A stretch of DNA of 64,000 bases, taken from NCBI RefSeq assembly GCF_003334255.1, contig NZ_QOWU01000014.1; one strand, given 5' to 3'. The notes under the pieces are model-generated. The model was not told where the DNA came from and made no database searches. It worked only from the letters and a program-made list of their open reading frames with translations. The stretch is from Escherichia coli (GTDB taxonomy: Bacteria > Pseudomonadota > Gammaproteobacteria > Enterobacterales > Enterobacteriaceae). The position numbers were made by a program, and so were the translations under genes. Positions 3,319-64,000 of this stretch are shown piece after piece (position 1 is the stretch's first letter; every line of letters begins with the position of its first letter).

Positions 3319-3613
3319 CTCTAGATCTCTTTTTTGCCTGCAAGCCCGGGTAATGCGCACACAAGTTCTGCTTAATCGATTGAAAAAACATCTTTTTTTT
3401 AAAGATGTGTTCGATGCTGTGTACCTGTGCTCACAGAGGTCTACTTTTTCGCGAAAACGTAGATCTCTACCGCCCAACGAAAAGCATGAAAGCGATCACG
3501 AATCCCATTGGGTCGTCATGTTCTGCCGATCGCATCTTCCTATCCTCGCTCCAGGCCTGCCGCATAACCAATCAGGCTTCCTACTTACAGAATTGAGAAA
3601 AGAGGATGTGGAA

Positions 3614-6934
<3,321 letters not shown>

Positions 6935-11609: not shown

Positions 11610-12103
11610 CAGGAAGTCAGGTCATTGATGCTGAAGAGGACAGGCATAAACTGGTTGTAGAGTACAAGGATGCTCTGCAACCTGCCGATTTTTATCACAA
11701 TTTCAAACAGCGGGGCATCCGCTCCGTACAGCTCATTCCCTATCTTGAATTTGATGACCGGGGCGATCTGACGGCCGCTTCGGTGACAGCAGAGCTGTGG
11801 GGGAAATTTTTAATTGCCCTGTTCGAGTGTTGGGTGCGGGCAGATATCAGTCGTATCTCGATTGAGCTTTTTGACGCCACCTTACAAAAATGGTGTGGCA
11901 GCGAAAACCCGCAACCGCGCTGTGACTGCCAGGCGTGCGACTGGCATCGCCTGTGCCCGCACGCTCGGCAGGAGACGCCAGACAGCGTGCTTTGTGCGGG
12001 CTATCAGGCGTTTTATTCTTACTCCGCACCGCATATGCGGGTGATGCGTGATCTGATAAAGCAGCATCGTTCTCCCATGGAGCTGATGACGATGCTGCGG
12101 TGA
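11606..12103 (+). CDS. yidF: YidF, Cys-rich protein resembling only the C-terminal part of an anaerobic sulfatase-maturating enzyme
   Basis: 165-aa ORF with Cys cluster CDCQACDWHRLCP; no CxxxCxxC radical-SAM motif. Confidence 0.75.
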   Translation: MTGSQVIDAEEDRHKLVVEYKDALQPADFYHNFKQRGIRSVQLIPYLEFDDRGDLTAASVTAELWGKFLIALFECWVRADISRISIELFDATLQKWCGSENPQPRCDCQACDWHRLCPHARQETPDSVLCAGYQAFYSYSAPHMRVMRDLIKQHRSPMELMTMLR

Positions 12104-12110
12104 CGTGCGC

Positions 12111-13295
12111 TTAAACGGGCTGCCCCTGATGCGACATCCGCGTCGCCAGCGGCAGCCAGCACAGCACGATCAACAATCCCATTAAGGTCATCAACAACCC
12201 CAGGCTGCCCTGACCGGTTTGCGGCAACATCGCAGAGAGCGACGCCAGCACGCCGGAACCAATGTTTTGCAGACCGCCGACCAGCGCGCCAGCCGTGCCC
12301 GCCAGGAAGGGGAACGGCTCCATCGCGCCGCTGGTCGCCAGCGGAAACAGCATCCCGGCACCGAAAAAGAACAGCGCGGCGGGAACGAGCAGCGTCCAGA
12401 CATTCATCACGCCAAACCAGTCGGGGATCCACATCAGCAAGCCAGCCAGCAGGCAGCAGATAACCGACTGCCACATTAACGTGGAGAAGCGTTTATTGGG
12501 ACGTCCGGCAAACCATGCGCCAAAAAACGCTGCCGGAATCGGCAGAATAAACAAAATACTGACCGTCATACTGCTCAGCCCTAACACCGCGCCCATCAGC
12601 ACGCCGGAGCAGGCTTCAAAGGCGGCAATCCCGGCCAGACCGCCAATCAGCATCAGCAAATAACAGTTAAAACCGCTGTTACCGAAAAGCGTTTTATAAC
12701 TGGTAAGCAGGCGCGTGCGCGGTGCATCGACCGGACGCGTTTCCGGCATCCAGCGGGCCATACTGAAGGTCACACCAGCACAAAGAACCAACAAAAAGAG
12801 ATAACAGGCGCGCCAGTTCCACATCGTATCCAGCAGACCGCCGATTAGCGGTGCGAGCAACGGACTGACGAGAATCCCCATGTTTAACAGGCTGTTAGCA
12901 TGGCGCAACTGTGTCCGTTCATATAAATCTCGCGGTAAAGTACGCGCCATTACGCCGCCAACGCCGGTGCCCATCCCCTGCATCGCGCTGGCGGCAATCA
13001 ACACCGTCAAACTGGAGGTCGTGACCGCGACCAGCGTTGCCAGCATAAAAATGGACATTCCGACGAGGATCACCGGTCGGCGGCCCACGCGGTCGGAAAT
13101 CGGGCCATAAAACAGCTGTGAGACACCGTAAGTCAGCAGATAAGCGCCCATTACGCTCTGCACCGCCCCTTCACGGACGTTGAGATCGCGCGCCATATCG
13201 GCAATAGCTGGAATATAAATGGTTTGCGCCATCTGACCGACGGCCACGAGTAATACCAACATCAATAACAAATTGACGTTTCTTTGCCTTTTCAT
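12111..13295 (-). CDS. emrD: MFS multidrug efflux pump EmrD
   Basis: ORF 12111..13301 minus; product from MKRQRNVNLLLMLVLLVAVGQMAQTIYIPAIADMARDL matches EmrD. Confidence 0.9.
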   Translation of the reverse strand: MKRQRNVNLLLMLVLLVAVGQMAQTIYIPAIADMARDLNVREGAVQSVMGAYLLTYGVSQLFYGPISDRVGRRPVILVGMSIFMLATLVAVTTSSLTVLIAASAMQGMGTGVGGVMARTLPRDLYERTQLRHANSLLNMGILVSPLLAPLIGGLLDTMWNWRACYLFLLVLCAGVTFSMARWMPETRPVDAPRTRLLTSYKTLFGNSGFNCYLLMLIGGLAGIAAFEACSGVLMGAVLGLSSMTVSILFILPIPAAFFGAWFAGRPNKRFSTLMWQSVICCLLAGLLMWIPDWFGVMNVWTLLVPAALFFFGAGMLFPLATSGAMEPFPFLAGTAGALVGGLQNIGSGVLASLSAMLPQTGQGSLGLLMTLMGLLIVLCWLPLATRMSHQGQPV

Positions 13296-13470
13296 TATCA
13301 CGGATGCTTTTATAAAAATAATTAGAATAAGTCACTACGCATTCCCATAAATGCGGGAGAGGAATCTATCACATTGATGAATGTTAGCCAGATATACGCC
13401 AGGAATGGGGAATTGTTTAGCGGCAGAATATGTAAACAAAAGCGGCAATAAATGTTGCCGGGAGAGATGG

Positions 13471-13506
13471 TAGGGCGGATAAGATGCGTCAGCATCGCAT
13501 CCGACA
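13471..13506. repeat. REP-like palindromic element
   Basis: tagggcggataagatgcgtcagcatcgcatccgaca resembles the REP consensus. Confidence 0.5.
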
Positions 13507-13530
13507 CCAACCCGCACGCTAAATATAAAA

Positions 13531-13558
13531 GGGGAGCGGTTTCCCGCTCCCCTTTGGT
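13531..13558 (-). terminator. Intrinsic terminator downstream of tisB
   Basis: Hairpin ggggagcgg-tttc-ccgctcccc, followed on the minus strand by a T-rich run. Confidence 0.5.
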
Positions 13559-13574
13559 GCGACTTGAATCTGAA

Positions 13575-13664
13575 TTACTTCAGGTATTTCAGAACAGCAT
13601 CAAGCAGTTGCAGTGCTGCAACAATGAGTTTGAGGATAAGAATGGCGATATCCACCAGGTTCAT
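13575..13664 (-). CDS. tisB: Type I toxin TisB (29-aa membrane peptide)
   Basis: Minus-strand ATGAACCTGGTGGATATCGCC… translates to MNLVDIAILILKLIVAALQLLDAVLKYLK then stop. Too short for the ORF track. Confidence 0.85.
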   Translation of the reverse strand: MNLVDIAILILKLIVAALQLLDAVLKYLK

Positions 13665-13898
13665 ACGCGTCTCCTGTGGTTCAGGAGCACTGCCAGCTGA
13701 CGTACCTTTCCGCTGCCTGTTGCCAGCTGTTGTGCACGCGGTATCTCAAGGAGAAACGTTGTGCTTGTTGACATAACACAGTGTGCTCACGCGGGGTTAA
13801 GGCGCTGACGGCACCACCCGTTTCAGCCAGGACTTAGTGCGCCGGGTAACGATGCGGCCCCCGCATAACACATTGCGTACAGTGATATTATAGAAGTT

Positions 13899-13918
13899 TA
13901 CTGTATAAATAAACAGTA
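13899..13918. promoter_or_regulatory. LexA (SOS) box between divergent tisAB and istR
   Basis: TACTGTATAAATAAACAGTA, a perfect CTGT-N8-ACAG. Confidence 0.8.
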
Positions 13919-14026
13919 ATATTTGGACAAAACGCAAACTGTGATCGATACTCAACTATGCACTAAATACGTCAAAATTCGTGCCGAAATTGCGCGTTCT
14001 GCGCGGAACACGTATACTTTCAGTGT

Positions 14027-14101
14027 TGACATAATACAGTGTGCTTTGCGGTTACCAGCCGCAGGCGACTGACGAAACCTCGCTCCGGCGGGGTTTTTTG
14101 T
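14027..14101 (+). ncRNA. istR: IstR-1 antitoxin sRNA (the longer IstR-2 would start ~65 nt upstream)
   Basis: …gttgacataatacagtgtgctttgcggttaccagccgcaggcgactgacgaaacctcgctccggcggggtttttt matches my recollection of IstR ending in its intrinsic terminator. 5' end is approximate. Confidence 0.65.
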
Positions 14102-14228
14102 TATCTGCAATTCAGTACAAAACGTGATCAACCCCTCAATTTTCCCTTGCTGAAAAATTTTCCATTGTCTCCCCTGTAAAGCTGTGCTTGTATAAATATT
14201 GTTAAACACAAAACCAACAAGGTCCCCA

Positions 14229-14327
14229 ATGACTACTTCCATGCTCAACGCAAAACTACTACCAACTGCGCCATCCGCCGCAGTGGTCGTCGTGCGTGTG
14301 GTGGTGGTCGTCGGCAATGCGCCGTAG
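14229..14327 (+). CDS. ivbL: ilvB operon leader peptide
   Basis: ATG…TAG encodes MTTSMLNAKLLPTAPSAAVVVVRVVVVVGNAP (Val/Leu-rich), directly upstream of an attenuator hairpin. Confidence 0.85.
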   Translation: MTTSMLNAKLLPTAPSAAVVVVRVVVVVGNAP

Positions 14328-14351
14328 GGACTGGAACAACACACGATTCCA

Positions 14352-14388
14352 AAACCCCGCCGGCGCAAACCGGGCGGGGTTTTTCGTT
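14352..14388 (+). terminator. ilvB attenuator terminator
   Basis: aaaccccgccggcgcaaaccgggcggggtttttcgttt: GC hairpin plus U-run between leader and ilvB. Confidence 0.7.
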
Positions 14389-14432
14389 TAAGCACCTCCC
14401 GGAAAGTCGGCCCAGAAGAAAAGGACTGGAGC

Positions 14433-16121
14433 ATGGCAAGTTCGGGCACAACATCGACGCGTAAGCGCTTTACCGGCGCAGAATTTATCGTTCATTTCCT
14501 GGAACAGCAGGGCATTAAGATTGTGACAGGCATTCCGGGCGGTTCTATCCTGCCTGTTTACGATGCCTTAAGCCAAAGCACGCAAATCCGCCATATTCTG
14601 GCCCGTCATGAACAGGGCGCGGGCTTTATCGCTCAGGGAATGGCGCGCACCGACGGTAAACCGGCGGTCTGTATGGCCTGTAGCGGACCGGGTGCGACTA
14701 ACCTGGTGACCGCCATTGCCGATGCGCGGCTGGACTCCATCCCGCTGATTTGCATCACTGGTCAGGTTCCCGCCTCGATGATCGGCACCGACGCCTTCCA
14801 GGAAGTGGACACCTACGGCATCTCTATCCCCATCACCAAACACAACTATCTGGTCAGACATATCGAAGAACTCCCGCAGGTCATGAGCGATGCCTTCCGC
14901 ATTGCGCAATCAGGCCGCCCAGGCCCGGTGTGGATAGACATTCCTAAGGATGTGCAAACGGCAGTTTTTGAGATTGAAACACAGCCCGCTATGGCAGAAA
15001 AAGCCGCCGCCCCCGCCTTTAGCGAAGAAAGCATTCGTGACGCAGCGGCGATGATTAACGCTGCCAAACGCCCGGTGCTTTATCTGGGCGGCGGTGTGAT
15101 CAATGCGCCCGCACGGGTGCGTGAACTGGCGGAGAAAGCGCAACTGCCTACCACCATGACTTTAATGGCGCTGGGCATGTTGCCAAAAGCGCATCCGTTG
15201 TCGCTGGGTATGCTGGGGATGCACGGCGTGCGCAGCACCAACTATATTTTGCAGGAGGCGGATTTGTTGATAGTGCTCGGTGCGCGTTTTGATGACCGGG
15301 CGATTGGCAAAACCGAGCAGTTCTGTCCGAATGCCAAAATCATTCATGTCGATATCGACCGTGCAGAGCTGGGTAAAATCAAGCAGCCGCACGTGGCGAT
15401 TCAGGCGGATGTTGATGACGTGCTGGCGCAGTTGATCCCGCTGGTGGAAGCGCAACCGCGTGCAGAGTGGCACCAGTTGGTAGCGGATTTGCAGCGTGAG
15501 TTTCCGTGTCCAATCCCGAAAGCGTGCGATCCGTTAAGCCATTACGGCCTGATCAACGCCGTTGCCGCCTGTGTCGATGACAATGCAATTATCACCACCG
15601 ACGTTGGTCAGCATCAGATGTGGACCGCGCAAGCTTATCCGCTCAATCGCCCACGCCAGTGGCTGACCTCCGGTGGGCTGGGCACGATGGGTTTTGGCCT
15701 GCCTGCGGCGATTGGCGCTGCGCTGGCGAACCCGGATCGCAAAGTGTTGTGTTTCTCCGGCGACGGCAGCCTGATGATGAATATTCAGGAGATGGCGACC
15801 GCCAGTGAAAATCAGCTGGATGTCAAAATCATTCTGATGAACAACGAAGCGCTGGGGCTGGTGCATCAGCAACAGAGTCTGTTCTACGAGCAAGGCGTTT
15901 TTGCCGCCACCTATCCGGGCAAAATCAACTTTATGCAGATTGCCGCCGGATTCGGCCTCGAAACCTGTGATTTGAATAACGAAGCCGATCCGCAGGCTTC
16001 ATTGCAGGAAATCATCAATCGCCCTGGCCCGGCGCTGATCCATGTGCGCATTGATGCCGAAGAAAAAGTTTACCCGATGGTGCCGCCAGGTGCGGCGAAT
16101 ACTGAAATGGTGGGGGAATAA
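14433..16121 (+). CDS. ilvB: Acetolactate synthase I, large subunit
   Basis: 562-aa ORF with thiamine-pyrophosphate enzyme motifs; starts MASSGTTSTRKRFTGAEFIVHFLEQQGIK. Confidence 0.95.
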   Translation: MASSGTTSTRKRFTGAEFIVHFLEQQGIKIVTGIPGGSILPVYDALSQSTQIRHILARHEQGAGFIAQGMARTDGKPAVCMACSGPGATNLVTAIADARLDSIPLICITGQVPASMIGTDAFQEVDTYGISIPITKHNYLVRHIEELPQVMSDAFRIAQSGRPGPVWIDIPKDVQTAVFEIETQPAMAEKAAAPAFSEESIRDAAAMINAAKRPVLYLGGGVINAPARVRELAEKAQLPTTMTLMALGMLPKAHPLSLGMLGMHGVRSTNYILQEADLLIVLGARFDDRAIGKTEQFCPNAKIIHVDIDRAELGKIKQPHVAIQADVDDVLAQLIPLVEAQPRAEWHQLVADLQREFPCPIPKACDPLSHYGLINAVAACVDDNAIITTDVGQHQMWTAQAYPLNRPRQWLTSGGLGTMGFGLPAAIGAALANPDRKVLCFSGDGSLMMNIQEMATASENQLDVKIILMNNEALGLVHQQQSLFYEQGVFAATYPGKINFMQIAAGFGLETCDLNNEADPQASLQEIINRPGPALIHVRIDAEEKVYPMVPPGAANTEMVGE

Positions 16122-48633: not shown

Positions 48634-49458
48634 CTATTTCTTCTCTGTAATTTTTACACTGTTTTCCAACTGCTTGATGCTGACCTGCGGGGTCGGCAAC
48701 TCCTCAGGCATGGTTCCGCCAAGTTCCTGAATGGTTTGCCTCACCTTGCGACCCACGTCAAAGTGTGTGGTGTTTGCTTGCTGTTTTGAATTCACGCCAT
48801 CCCGCTTGAGTTTTTCTTCTGTTTGGGTAGCTCGAAAGAGATTAGCCGCCAGTTCTGTTGAACCCATATGATCCAGGATCTTCTGATTCTTTTTCAGCCC
48901 CTTCCGCTGATGAATAGCTTTCTGATCTAATCCACCATACAGCCCCCGGTAACCATGATTCTGAAATATGGCGAAATCGATAGCTGTCGCTCCCCCAGCT
49001 TGCTGCGCTGCCTCAACCAATTGTTTGTTATGTTCTTTCAATTCATTTCTCAGAAAAAGACGCTTTTCGTCTTCACGAAGTTGCCTGAAAGCTTCATCGT
49101 CAGCCAGCTCCTGCCGTCGGGTCTGGATAGCAAAATAAGTTTGCCCTGCCGCAATAACCGGTTTCGCAGGGTCGCCGTTTTGTACTACCAGGTAACAGGC
49201 ATAGCGGGAGAGATGAACATCTTCAAGTTCTCGTTGAGCCCCTGAACCTAATACAACCATTTTGGTGGTTTCAACGAAATGGTCAGATGCAGCTTGATTG
49301 CTGGCTTCGCACGCTTGAGTCGCGCGGGCCAGTACCTTTTGAAAATTGCGCCAGTCCCGATAATCCAGTAACGGTGCCAATTCTCTAGCTGACCAAAATT
49401 CTTGCCCTTCAGTGCCATAATGCCGTATTTCTTCAAAAGGTTGATGATGTTCGTTCAT
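48634..49458 (-). CDS. dinD: DNA-damage-inducible protein D
   Basis: ORF 48634..49470 minus; start at MNEHHQPFEEIRHYGTEGQEFW. LexA box lies upstream. Confidence 0.85.
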   Translation of the reverse strand: MNEHHQPFEEIRHYGTEGQEFWSARELAPLLDYRDWRNFQKVLARATQACEASNQAASDHFVETTKMVVLGSGAQRELEDVHLSRYACYLVVQNGDPAKPVIAAGQTYFAIQTRRQELADDEAFRQLREDEKRLFLRNELKEHNKQLVEAAQQAGGATAIDFAIFQNHGYRGLYGGLDQKAIHQRKGLKKNQKILDHMGSTELAANLFRATQTEEKLKRDGVNSKQQANTTHFDVGRKVRQTIQELGGTMPEELPTPQVSIKQLENSVKITEKK

Positions 49459-49501: not shown

Positions 49502-49521
49502 AACTGTATTTATATACAGTT
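49502..49521. promoter_or_regulatory. LexA (SOS) box of dinD
   Basis: AACTGTATTTATATACAGTT, a perfect CTGT-N8-ACAG about 45 bp upstream of the dinD start. Confidence 0.75.
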
Positions 49522-50668: not shown

Positions 50669-51385
50669 ATGCGTCCAGCAGGCCGTAGCAATAATCAGGT
50701 GCGTCCCGTTACCCTGACTCGTAACTATACAAAACATGCAGAAGGCTCGGTGCTGGTCGAATTTGGCGATACCAAAGTGTTGTGTACCGCCTCTATTGAA
50801 GAAGGCGTGCCGCGCTTCCTGAAAGGTCAGGACCAGGGCTGGATCACCGCAGAGTACGGCATGCTGCCACGTTCTACCCACACCCGTAACGCTCGTGAAG
50901 CGGCGAAAGGTAAGCAGGGTGGACGCACAATGGAAATCCAGCGTCTGATCGCCCGTGCTCTTCGCGCGGCAGTAGATTTGAAAGCGCTGGGTGAGTTCAC
51001 CATTACGCTGGACTGCGACGTGCTTCAGGCTGATGGTGGCACGCGTACCGCGTCGATTACGGGTGCCTGCGTGGCGCTGGCAGATGCGCTACAGAAGCTG
51101 GTGGAAAACGGCAAGCTGAAAACCAACCCGATGAAAGGGATGGTAGCCGCAGTTTCTGTCGGTATTGTAAACGGTGAAGCAATTTGCGATCTGGAATACG
51201 TTGAAGACTCAGCCGCAGAGACCGACATGAACGTAGTGATGACCGAAGACGGGCGCATCATTGAAGTGCAGGGGACGGCAGAAGGCGAGCCGTTCACCCA
51301 TGAAGAGCTACTCACCTTGTTGGCGCTGGCCCGAGGGGGAATCGAATCCATTGTAGCGACGCAGAAGGCGGCGCTGGCAAACTGA
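50669..51385 (+). CDS. rph: Ribonuclease PH, full length
   Basis: ORF 50645..51385; start at [17 protein letters not shown]-terminus …[20 protein letters not shown] is complete. Confidence 0.9.
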
Positions 51386-55969: not shown

Positions 55970-55991
55970 TTCTCGCTTTGATGTAACGAAA

Positions 55992-56017
55992 AACCTCGCT
56001 CCGGCGGGGTTTTTTGT
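55992..56017 (+). terminator. Intrinsic terminator after rpmG
   Basis: cctcgc-tccg-gcgggg hairpin followed by six T; the same 33 nt occur at 14076..14108. Confidence 0.65.
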
Positions 56018-56066
56018 TATCTGCTTACCCCCATATTGATTGCATCTGTTCATTCCTGGAGATGCT

Positions 56067-62103: not shown

Positions 62104-63111
62104 ATGTCTCAACTCAATGATAGTGACATCATCCTTTTTGAGTATAATTTTCATTATCAAAATATAAGATCTAAAAATACTCTTGATATAGCATTTGGTA
62201 TTGACAGAAATTTTCTTTTTGGATGTGGTGTAGCCATCGCATCTATTCTATTAAACAATAGAGAAATCTCTTGTGAATTTCATGTTTTCACAGATTATAT
62301 CAGTGATAAAGACAAATTATATTTTTCTGATTTAGCAAAACAATATAATTCAAGAATTAATATTTATGTTATCAATTGTGATAAGCTGAAGTCATTACCA
62401 AGCACGAAAAACTGGACTTACGCAACATATTTTCGATTTATAATTGCAGATTATTTCTATCATAAACATGAAAAAATACTATATCTTGATGCAGATATTG
62501 CTTGCAAGGGTAGTATTAAAGAACTCTTAGATTATCAATTTTCTACTAATGAAATTGCCGCAGTTGTAGCTGAAAGAGATGTTGAATGGTGGCAAAATCG
62601 AGCCTCGGTATTAACTACACCACAGTTAGCTTCTGGATATTTCAATGCTGGTTTTTTACTGATAAATATTGATGAGTGGAATCTAAATAACATTTCGTCA
62701 AAAGCTATTGAAATGTTGCGTGACCCAGATTGGGTAAGTAAAATCACCCACCTTGATCAAGATGTACTGAATGTATTATTGAATGGTAAAGTGAAGTTTA
62801 TTTCGGAGAAATATAATACCCGATATAGTATTAACTATGAATTAAAAGACAAAGTTGATAATCCAGTCAATGATGACACCGTGTTTATACACTATGTGGG
62901 ACCTACAAAACCCTGGCATGAGTGGGCTGACTATCCGGTGTCACGTAGTTTTTTGATCGCCAAAGCAGCTTCTCCGTGGAGTAAAGAAGATTTACTTAAA
63001 CCTGTAAATAGCAATCAGTATCGGTATTGTGCAAAACATAAATTTAAACAAAAGCATTATATGGCAGGCATTTTTAATTATTTAAAGTATTATAAAGAAA
63101 AATGCTTCTAA
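62104..63111 (+). CDS. LPS outer-core alpha-1,3-glycosyltransferase, GT8 family (WaaI/WaaO-like)
   Basis: 335-aa ORF with GT8 N-terminal pattern …LDIAFGIDRNFLFGCGVAIASIL… and DxD region. AT-rich. Confidence 0.7.
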   Translation: MSQLNDSDIILFEYNFHYQNIRSKNTLDIAFGIDRNFLFGCGVAIASILLNNREISCEFHVFTDYISDKDKLYFSDLAKQYNSRINIYVINCDKLKSLPSTKNWTYATYFRFIIADYFYHKHEKILYLDADIACKGSIKELLDYQFSTNEIAAVVAERDVEWWQNRASVLTTPQLASGYFNAGFLLINIDEWNLNNISSKAIEMLRDPDWVSKITHLDQDVLNVLLNGKVKFISEKYNTRYSINYELKDKVDNPVNDDTVFIHYVGPTKPWHEWADYPVSRSFLIAKAASPWSKEDLLKPVNSNQYRYCAKHKFKQKHYMAGIFNYLKYYKEKCF

Positions 63112-63136
63112 AGATTTAAGGTTAAAATAATTCATT

Positions 63137-63844
63137 ATGATATATAATAAAACGATAAATGGGTTGAAAGTTTTCATAAAAGATAATGATCCCTTTTATG
63201 AGCAAGTTCTAAATGACTTTTTAACTTGCAGGGTTAAAACATTAAAAGTTTTTCGTTCTATTGATGATACTAAAGTCATTCTTATTGACACTGCTCGTGG
63301 ACCTCTTGTACTTAAAGTTTATGCGCCAAAGCATAAAATGACCGAACGTTTCTTAAAATCTTGCATAAAAAAAGATTATTATGAAAATTTAATTTATCAA
63401 ACCGATCGGGTACGTGGTGAAGGCATCCAATCAATTAATGACTATTTTTTGCTAGCTGAACGTAAAACATTAAATTTCGCTCATTATTATATTATGCTCA
63501 TTGAGTATATTGAAGGTGTCGGGTTAAATGAGTATTTGGAAATTTCTGAAGATCTGAAGGATCAATTATCAGAATCGATAAAAGAGTTGCATCAGCATGG
63601 AATGGTGTCTGGCGATCCTCATAAAGGAAATTTTATAGTATCCGAAAAAGGTTTAAGACTAATTGACCTTTCAGGTAAAAAAACAACCGCTGTTTTAAAA
63701 GCAAAAGATCGCATTGATCTTGAACGGCACTATAATATAAAAAATGAATTGAAAGACTTTGGCTATACATATCTTATATTCAAAAAGAAAATTAAAAAAG
63801 TAATCAGGGATGTAAAAGTCAAACTAGGATTGAAGAGCAAATAA
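63137..63844 (+). CDS. waaY: LPS core heptose(II) kinase, WaaY-like
   Basis: 235-aa ORF with kinase-like …LHQHGMVSGDPHKGNFIV…IDLSGK… resembling WaaY. AT-rich. Confidence 0.75.
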   Translation: MIYNKTINGLKVFIKDNDPFYEQVLNDFLTCRVKTLKVFRSIDDTKVILIDTARGPLVLKVYAPKHKMTERFLKSCIKKDYYENLIYQTDRVRGEGIQSINDYFLLAERKTLNFAHYYIMLIEYIEGVGLNEYLEISEDLKDQLSESIKELHQHGMVSGDPHKGNFIVSEKGLRLIDLSGKKTTAVLKAKDRIDLERHYNIKNELKDFGYTYLIFKKKIKKVIRDVKVKLGLKSK

Positions 63845-63868
63845 TGATTATGATGAAGGGTAATTAAA

Positions 63869-64000
63869 TTGGATTTTAAACATCTTACTCAATTTAAAGA
63901 TATAATTGAACTGGACAAGCGCCCCGTTAAACTTGATGAACGGGAAACGTTTAATGTCTCATGGGGTATTGATGAGAACTACCAGGTTGGGGCTGCGATT
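63869..64000 (+). CDS. Second GT8-family LPS outer-core glycosyltransferase, 5' part only (runs out of window)
   Basis: Frame from 63869 gives …ETFNVSWGIDENYQVGAAI, a GT8 N-terminal motif. No ATG in frame, so the start is uncertain. Confidence 0.45.
   Translation, partial: MDFKHLTQFKDIIELDKRPVKLDERETFNVSWGIDENYQVGAAI

Follow-up and report, generated by a model that had tools for sequence, protein, structure and literature searches.

The 64-kb stretch of Escherichia coli DNA analysed here (64,000 nucleotides, hereafter the window) almost certainly carries the chromosomal type I toxin–antitoxin module tisB/istR-1, in an intact copy that does not differ in sequence from the K-12 locus used to elucidate the mechanism. 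Four independent lines of evidence agree on this identity: matches of the encoded peptide to TisB profile HMMs, an Rfam match to istR, nucleotide identity with K-12, and the combination of antisense pairing, LexA box and ivbL–emrD location, which agrees with published descriptions (PMC4147584, PMC2577331, PMC11264685, PMC9040746). All sequence-testable defining features of tisB/istR-1 were found in the window, and nothing in the sequence contradicts the assignment. An earlier, sequence-only reading had placed the module at 13531–14110; its elements lie where that reading put them, but its start falls inside the tisAB terminator hairpin (13528..13555), and the complete module spans about 13525..14099. 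The features, with the basis for each, are as follows.

13525..13883, minus strand: tisAB primary transcript, 359 nt, its ends estimated (±2 nt) by fitting the published length to the positions of the -10 box and terminator (PMC2577331)
13528..13555, minus strand: tisAB intrinsic terminator, a 12-bp stem with 8 G-C pairs followed by a U-run
13575..13664, minus strand: tisB coding sequence, a 29-aa hydrophobic inner-membrane toxin (NCBIfam TisB equivalogs, RefSeq tisB)
13661..13774, minus strand: tisA ORF, 37 codons, whose stop overlaps the tisB start (ATGA)
13670..13675, minus strand: tisB Shine–Dalgarno AGGAGA, +209..+214 of tisAB RNA (sequence; ribosome-binding site in PMC11264685 Table 1)
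13766..13787, minus strand: IstR-1 target and ribosome standby region, AGCACACUGUGUUAUGUCAACA, +97..+118 of the tisAB leader (PMC2577331, PMC4147584)
13887..13892, minus strand: tisAB -10 hexamer TATAAT (sequence; PMC11264685 Table 1)
13899..13918, no strand assigned: LexA operator TACTGTATAAATAAACAGTA, a match to TACTG-N10-CAGTA
13924..13952, plus strand: IstR-2 promoter, TGGACA, 17-nt spacer, GATACT (promoter scan; PMC11264685 Table 1)
13960..14099, plus strand: IstR-2, the 140-nt SOS-induced long form (NC_000913.3 annotation mapped; Rfam istR; PMC11264685)
13990..14018, plus strand: IstR-1 promoter, constitutive, TTGCGC, 17-nt spacer, TATACT (PMC11264685 Table 1)
14027..14099, plus strand: IstR-1, the 73-nt antitoxin sRNA (NC_000913.3 annotation mapped)
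14074..14099, plus strand: IstR intrinsic terminator, a 10-bp G+C-rich hairpin at 14074..14097 followed by a T-run

The toxin gene proved to be as the sequence-only reading had described it. The ORF translates without interruption to MNLVDIAILILKLIVAALQLLDAVLKYLK*, so the disabling sequence error that reading had named as grounds for rejection is absent, and the peptide scored above the curated cut-offs of the two equivalog models that NCBIfam provides for 'type I toxin-antitoxin system toxin TisB' (NF011340, 69.6 bits against a cut-off of 53; TIGR04459, 59.9 bits against 38), aligning in each case over residues 1–29 of 29. TisB is hydrophobic (GRAVY 1.62), with charged residues at D5, K12, D22, K26 and K29, and is of the K-12 type with Asn at position 2. 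This N2 peptide is the minority form, 85% of E. coli loci encoding a Ser2 variant that is more toxic at low induction (PMC11264685). The default minimum of 60 aa used in ORF listing exceeds the 29-aa length of tisB; NCBI's PGAP nevertheless annotates the gene.

On the opposite strand, Rfam model RF01400 (istR) matched 13970..14099 over its full length (model positions 1–130 of 130; 150.1 bits, gathering threshold 45, E = 3.7e-31). Together with the 10-bp terminator hairpin, this bears out the claim of a divergent plus-strand IstR sRNA ending in a strong terminator. A generic consensus promoter scan recovered only the IstR-2 promoter, missing those of tisAB and of IstR-1, the latter because its -35 matches the consensus at just three of six positions; both were instead read from the sequence and matched to published hexamers (PMC11264685 Table 1). 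IstR-1 is made constitutively; IstR-2 appears only in the SOS response and has no repressive effect on tisB (PMC11264685, PMC9040746).

Comparison with K-12 MG1655 left no difference to explain within the locus. A 4,001-base segment of the window (11717..15717) is the exact reverse complement of NC_000913.3 3851500..3855500, and the 580-base interval of the sequence-only reading, which lies within it, is 100% identical to many E. coli chromosomes, MG1655 among them, with a RefSeq tisB annotated under the match. NC_000913.3 annotates tisB (b4618), IstR-1 and IstR-2 (b4616) at positions corresponding to the window features, which map to 13575..13664 (-), 14027..14099 (+) and 13960..14099 (+), respectively. 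In the PGAP annotation of another MG1655 record, tisB is present and an istR feature is absent. Genes, promoters, LexA box, antisense region, terminators and flanking genes are all the same as in K-12, and only the host genome differs (rph+, fused glvCB and the waa genes). The module is already known and ordinary, and this copy equals the reference one.

Placing the tisAB +1 at 13883, 4 nt downstream of TATAAT, gives the published length of 359 nt with the 3′ end at the terminator U-run, and the published +42 and +106 landmarks then land in the expected sequences. The +42 processing site falls within the uxaA-antisense stretch of tisAB, as reported (PMC2577331), the RNase III cut reported at +106 comes within the +97..+118 stretch targeted by IstR-1, and the tisB AUG is at +220. 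The tisAB terminator folds at -24.4 kcal/mol (z = -5.9). Upstream of tisB, the tisA frame has no NCBIfam family match and is absent from the curated K-12 annotation, from which it was dropped; published data report the frame as uninterrupted in over 99% of the E. coli loci, and no sign that it is translated (PMC11264685). The IstR-1 target includes the tisA start codon, an AUG at +110.

The antisense relationship is visible in the window as a 22-nt plus-strand repeat, 13766..13787 versus 14024..14045, identical at 21 of 22 positions and matching the published AGCACACTGTGTTATGTCAACA (PMC2577331). The two copies are transcribed in opposite directions, and the RNAs are therefore complementary, forming a 22-bp duplex in which the lone difference becomes a G·U pair. 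Roughly 100 nt separate this target from the tisB AUG downstream, the spacing given for the standby-ribosome mechanism (PMC4147584). The core duplex has an energy of -36.4 kcal/mol, and when the first 30 nt of IstR-1 were searched against both strands of the window (128 kb), this segment was the best non-self target, at -40.7 kcal/mol compared with -31.1 for the next best. A full-length IstR-1 × tisAB duplex was also computed (-73.5 kcal/mol versus a shuffle mean of -51.9, z = -5.2) but was set aside in favor of the 22-nt core, since that calculation ignores intramolecular structure and over-extends the pairing.

Folding of the individual RNAs is consistent with this arrangement. IstR-1 begins with a single-stranded 5′ tail that bears the antisense segment (nt 1–10, unpaired probability 1.00), followed by two hairpins (fold z = -4.5). 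The tisB Shine–Dalgarno sequence is predicted to be sequestered in the +1, +42 and +106 forms alike (unpaired probability about 0.15). In the minimum-energy fold of the +1 form, the tisAB 5′ end pairs onto the leader at +88..+108, and the predicted unpaired probability of the standby region rises modestly from 0.38 in the +1 form to 0.49 in the +42 form. Folding supports the +42 processing step qualitatively, and this step probably operates here on the strength of the literature rather than of confirmation in our analysis. The identity and integrity of the elements, the complementarity of the two RNAs, the sequestered Shine–Dalgarno sequence and the free IstR-1 tail are established here.

The LexA box lies between tisB and the divergent sRNA, just where the sequence-only reading had it, and it is the sole TACTG-N10-CAGTA match on either strand of the 64-kb window (0.03 expected; 3 of 100 shuffled sequences gave one). 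The two 5-nt arms fit the consensus without a mismatch and the 10-nt core consists of A and T alone, giving agreement at 18 of 20 positions with an idealised TACTG(TA)5CAGTA. In the tisAB promoter the box covers the -35/spacer region, 6 nt upstream of the TATAAT -10, and on the other side it precedes the IstR-2 -35 by 5 nt. Its heterology index is reported to be the lowest among LexA boxes, and LexA dissociates from it unusually slowly, which explains the late induction of tisAB and its requirement for high damage (PMC9040746). The description of the module as SOS-controlled holds for tisAB and for the longer IstR-2 but not for the functional antitoxin IstR-1, which is constitutive (PMC11264685, PMC9040746). 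The relaxed pattern CTGT-N8-ACAG occurs at just two further sites in the window, and one such LexA-type site, CTGTATTTATATACAG at 49504..49519, lies about 50 nt upstream of the start of the SOS gene dinD.

Both genes of a type I system, a small toxin mRNA and an RNA antitoxin, are present, and their pairing is predicted, with the regulatory outcome taken from the literature. LexA control with SOS induction, processing, standby competition, RNase III cleavage, depolarisation and persistence are likewise carried over from work on the identical K-12 sequence and would be expected to apply here. Experiments on that sequence described SOS-induced tisAB, constitutive IstR-1, RNase III cleavage of the duplex and +42 processing (PMC4147584, PMC5668327, PMC2577331); the K-12 mechanism is described by Vogel et al. 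2004 and Darfeuille et al. 2007, as cited in PMC4147584, and mechanism and phenotype are treated further elsewhere (PMC2826370, PMC8145889, PMC9040746, PMC11264685). For the identical protein, TisB is reported to depolarise the inner membrane and deplete ATP (PMC8145889, PMC9040746), and its depolarising activity, the toxicity of its overproduction and rescue by IstR-1 are all documented (PMC8145889, PMC9040746, PMC2826370).

Applied to the window, this model would run as follows. In undamaged cells, LexA bound to the very high-affinity operator at 13899..13918 would repress both the leftward tisAB and the rightward IstR-2 promoters, while IstR-1 would be produced constitutively from its own promoter. 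Full-length (+1) tisAB RNA would not be translated, since back-folding engages its 5′ end with the leader, and processing to the +42 form would expose the single-stranded standby site (+97..+118). Loading of 30S subunits at that site would be required because structure occludes the tisB Shine–Dalgarno sequence and AUG, which lie 100 nt downstream. IstR-1 would use its free 5′ tail to pair with the same 22-nt stretch, blocking standby loading and triggering RNase III cleavage to the inactive +106 form. Under heavy DNA damage, LexA would be cleaved, tisAB RNA would come to outnumber IstR-1 and TisB would be made, inserting in the inner membrane and collapsing proton-motive force and ATP to leave dormant, drug-tolerant cells.

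The general logic of the module is common to several other type I systems, and their sequence families are different. One of these is dinQ/agrB of E. coli, in which a LexA-repressed small inner-membrane toxin is paired with a divergent sRNA that binds a long 5′ UTR, and only the 5′-processed mRNA is translated (PMC3567139, PMC5668327); unlike tisB/istR-1, it has unrelated toxin and sRNA sequences and occupies another chromosomal site, and the peptide encoded here matches TisB-specific equivalog models only. The E. coli systems zorO/orzO and shoB/ohsC are also divergent, with an antitoxin that pairs in the 5′ UTR well away from the ribosome-binding site, translation activated by 5′ processing and a proposed standby-site mechanism (PMC4147584, PMC5668327), but they are not LexA-controlled and belong to other sequence families. 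In hok/sok, a small membrane toxin is likewise encoded by an inert primary mRNA whose antisense RNA triggers RNase III cleavage (PMC5668327); Sok, however, is encoded in cis across the leader ORF mok, which it overlaps, the mRNA is activated through 3′ processing, and the system is plasmid-borne, acts in post-segregational killing and has no LexA box.

The locus occupies its canonical ivbL–emrD site, flanked by emrD, ysdE and ivbL-ilvBN. The 24-aa small protein gene ysdE (13377..13451, plus strand) is annotated in NC_000913.3 and has no NCBIfam family match; it lies with a REP element (about 13470..13510) between emrD and the tisB terminator, convergent with tisB. Using a query from which the shared IstR terminator was left out, we found matches covering 80% or more of the locus, with identity no lower than 95%, in 4,137 of 5,426 complete E. 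coli genomes, with 222 more carrying only part and about 20% lacking it. All matches in these genomes were chromosomal and none was plasmid-borne. These counts fit both published surveys: one of 2,212 genomes reported 82% full, 3% interrupted and 15% absent loci (PMC11264685), and the other described independent losses affecting phylogroup B2, E. albertii and clade V, and placed the locus between ilvB and emrD in every other case (PMC9040746). The statement that this is the one true toxin system in the window stands only at the level of annotation: the K-12 annotation of the collinear span (position 1 to about 62 kb) contains no other toxin–antitoxin genes, and Rfam found istR, tRNA-Sec and JUMPstart in the window and no other antitoxin RNA.

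Three other readings of the locus were weighed against this one. Short ORFs are common, with 24 that are 20 aa or longer overlapping 13300..14400, and tisB could in principle be a chance ORF beside a chance LexA-like palindrome, or a decayed, non-functional relic. This is extremely unlikely given the equivalog HMM matches, the full-length Rfam match, a LexA box for which chance predicts 0.03 occurrences, a sequence 100% identical with that of the functional locus in K-12 and conservation in more than 4,100 genomes, and we consider it refuted by the Rfam, LexA-box, NCBIfam, K-12-identity and distribution results. A second proposal, that the main function of tisAB RNA is regulatory, dampening SOS and targeting uxaA and dinD mRNAs by antisense pairing, with the TisB peptide secondary, draws on a study in which tisAB overexpression inhibited SOS functions, cleavage of uxaA mRNA required 20 nt of antisense sequence within tisAB and UV sensitivity was still seen with a TisB M1I mutant (PMC2577331). 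Those effects were observed with a multicopy plasmid, tisAB-dependent degradation of dinD mRNA could not be shown there (PMC2577331), and later work assigned the phenotypes to TisB-dependent depolarisation (PMC8145889, PMC9040746, PMC5668327). The reported 16-nt antisense match between tisB (13595..13610) and the dinD 3′ end (48667..48682) is present in the window, but with E = 0.007 within the window alone it is weak sequence evidence, and we regard a mainly regulatory transcript as very unlikely.

What the module is selected for is a separate matter, and one debated in the literature. The persistence role claimed by the sequence-only reading is upheld for ciprofloxacin (PMC2826370) but not for ofloxacin, and other roles have been proposed (PMC9040746, PMC12626290), making persistence condition-dependent. 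It is quite possible, if somewhat short of probable, that the same module and mechanism were selected for protection of heavily DNA-damaged cells and not for persistence under antibiotics in itself; the TisB-driven loss of proton-motive force and ATP would either block uptake of toxic compounds or prevent prophage induction. TisB has been reported to shield massively DNA-damaged cells from environmental toxic compounds while leaving ofloxacin persistence unaffected, phylogroup B2, E. albertii and clade V have each lost the locus in separate events (PMC9040746), and in Salmonella TisB confers tolerance through ATP depletion that prevents prophage induction (PMC12626290); its absence from about 20% of complete E. 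coli genomes in our count also marks it as dispensable. Against this stand the ciprofloxacin persister phenotypes, in which deletion of tisB reduced persisters and deletion of istR-1 increased them 10- to 100-fold (PMC2826370, PMC4147584). Sequence separates neither role from the other, and the protective role is compatible with the identification of the locus as tisB/istR-1.

Two further sequence resemblances were seen at the locus. Over 34 nt (14075..14108, AAACCTCGCTCCGGCGGGGTTTTTTGTTATCTGC), the IstR terminator reproduces exactly the terminator that ends the ribosomal-protein operon rpmB-rpmG at 55991..56024, the two copies lying 42 kb apart on the same strand with sharp edges. A 2024 study mentioned short matches to the istR 3′ end and did not name rpmG (PMC11264685). 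The copy may have arisen when a 3′ module was captured or underwent gene conversion, or it may mean that the two share a binding partner. An apparently different rpmG terminator in strains without tisB/istR was discarded as a loop SNP that broke the megablast word; the rpmG copy in S1-SRB-02-B, the sampled strain of the tisB/istR-lacking type, carries that single loop SNP. Separately, the tisAB RNA 5′ end at +9..+25 (CAAUGUGUUAUGCGGGG, 13859..13875, minus strand) resembles nt 11–25 of IstR-1 (CAGUGUGCUUUGCGG, 14037..14051, plus strand). The cis-inhibitory element of tisAB looks like a sequence mimic of the trans antitoxin, the leader stretch that it pairs with in the predicted +1 fold (+87..+107) being the one targeted by IstR-1, which suggests that the cis and trans inhibitors share an origin. 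The terminator copy and the resemblance to the IstR-1 seed are among the observations hinting that the locus may be wired into more RNA-level connections than the standard toxin–antitoxin picture allows. We consider such wiring very unlikely, and even if true it would leave the identity of the locus unchanged.

Although its tisB locus is identical, the source strain is not K-12 itself, judging from full-length rph, fused glvC/glvB, differing waa genes and an rph/dinD stretch as in non-K-12 isolates. Comparison of ORF end coordinates with the K-12 annotation indicated collinearity from position 1 to about 62 kb, without an island at selC and with offsets of +1, +1 and -5 bp. The rph gene (50669..51385) encodes a full-length, 238-aa RNase PH, whereas the copy in NC_000913.3 is 1 bp shorter and annotated as 'truncated RNase PH' (the rph-1 frameshift); the rph/dinD stretch is 100% identical to strains G1/2, G6/7, G8, B-1109 and others. 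At the end of glvC, the K-12 stop TAG is replaced by CAG (4718..4720), so that glvC and glvB form one continuous ORF (3353..5230), an intact PTS EIICB-type gene, and the downstream glvG ORF ends at 5868 (212 aa), far short of the K-12 glvG pseudogene span. A 5-bp deficit relative to K-12 lies between the waaA stop (57402) and the waaQ stop (60150). Downstream of waaQ-waaG-waaP (62104..64000), a 335-aa ORF stands in place of the 311-aa waaS of K-12, and the lipopolysaccharide core genes beyond waaP indicate a non-K-12 core type.

As the best-studied chromosomal type I toxin–antitoxin system, tisB/istR-1 gains little from this copy as a discovery. Its practical value is that of a positive control: a 29-codon gene, an sRNA and an operator were recovered from raw sequence, all three of which length-filtered ORF calling misses, and istR RNA is still left out by automated RefSeq annotation. 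The locus also matters for work on SOS-dependent drug tolerance in its source strain, where the TisB allele is the Asn2 one, a minority form of lower toxicity (PMC11264685).
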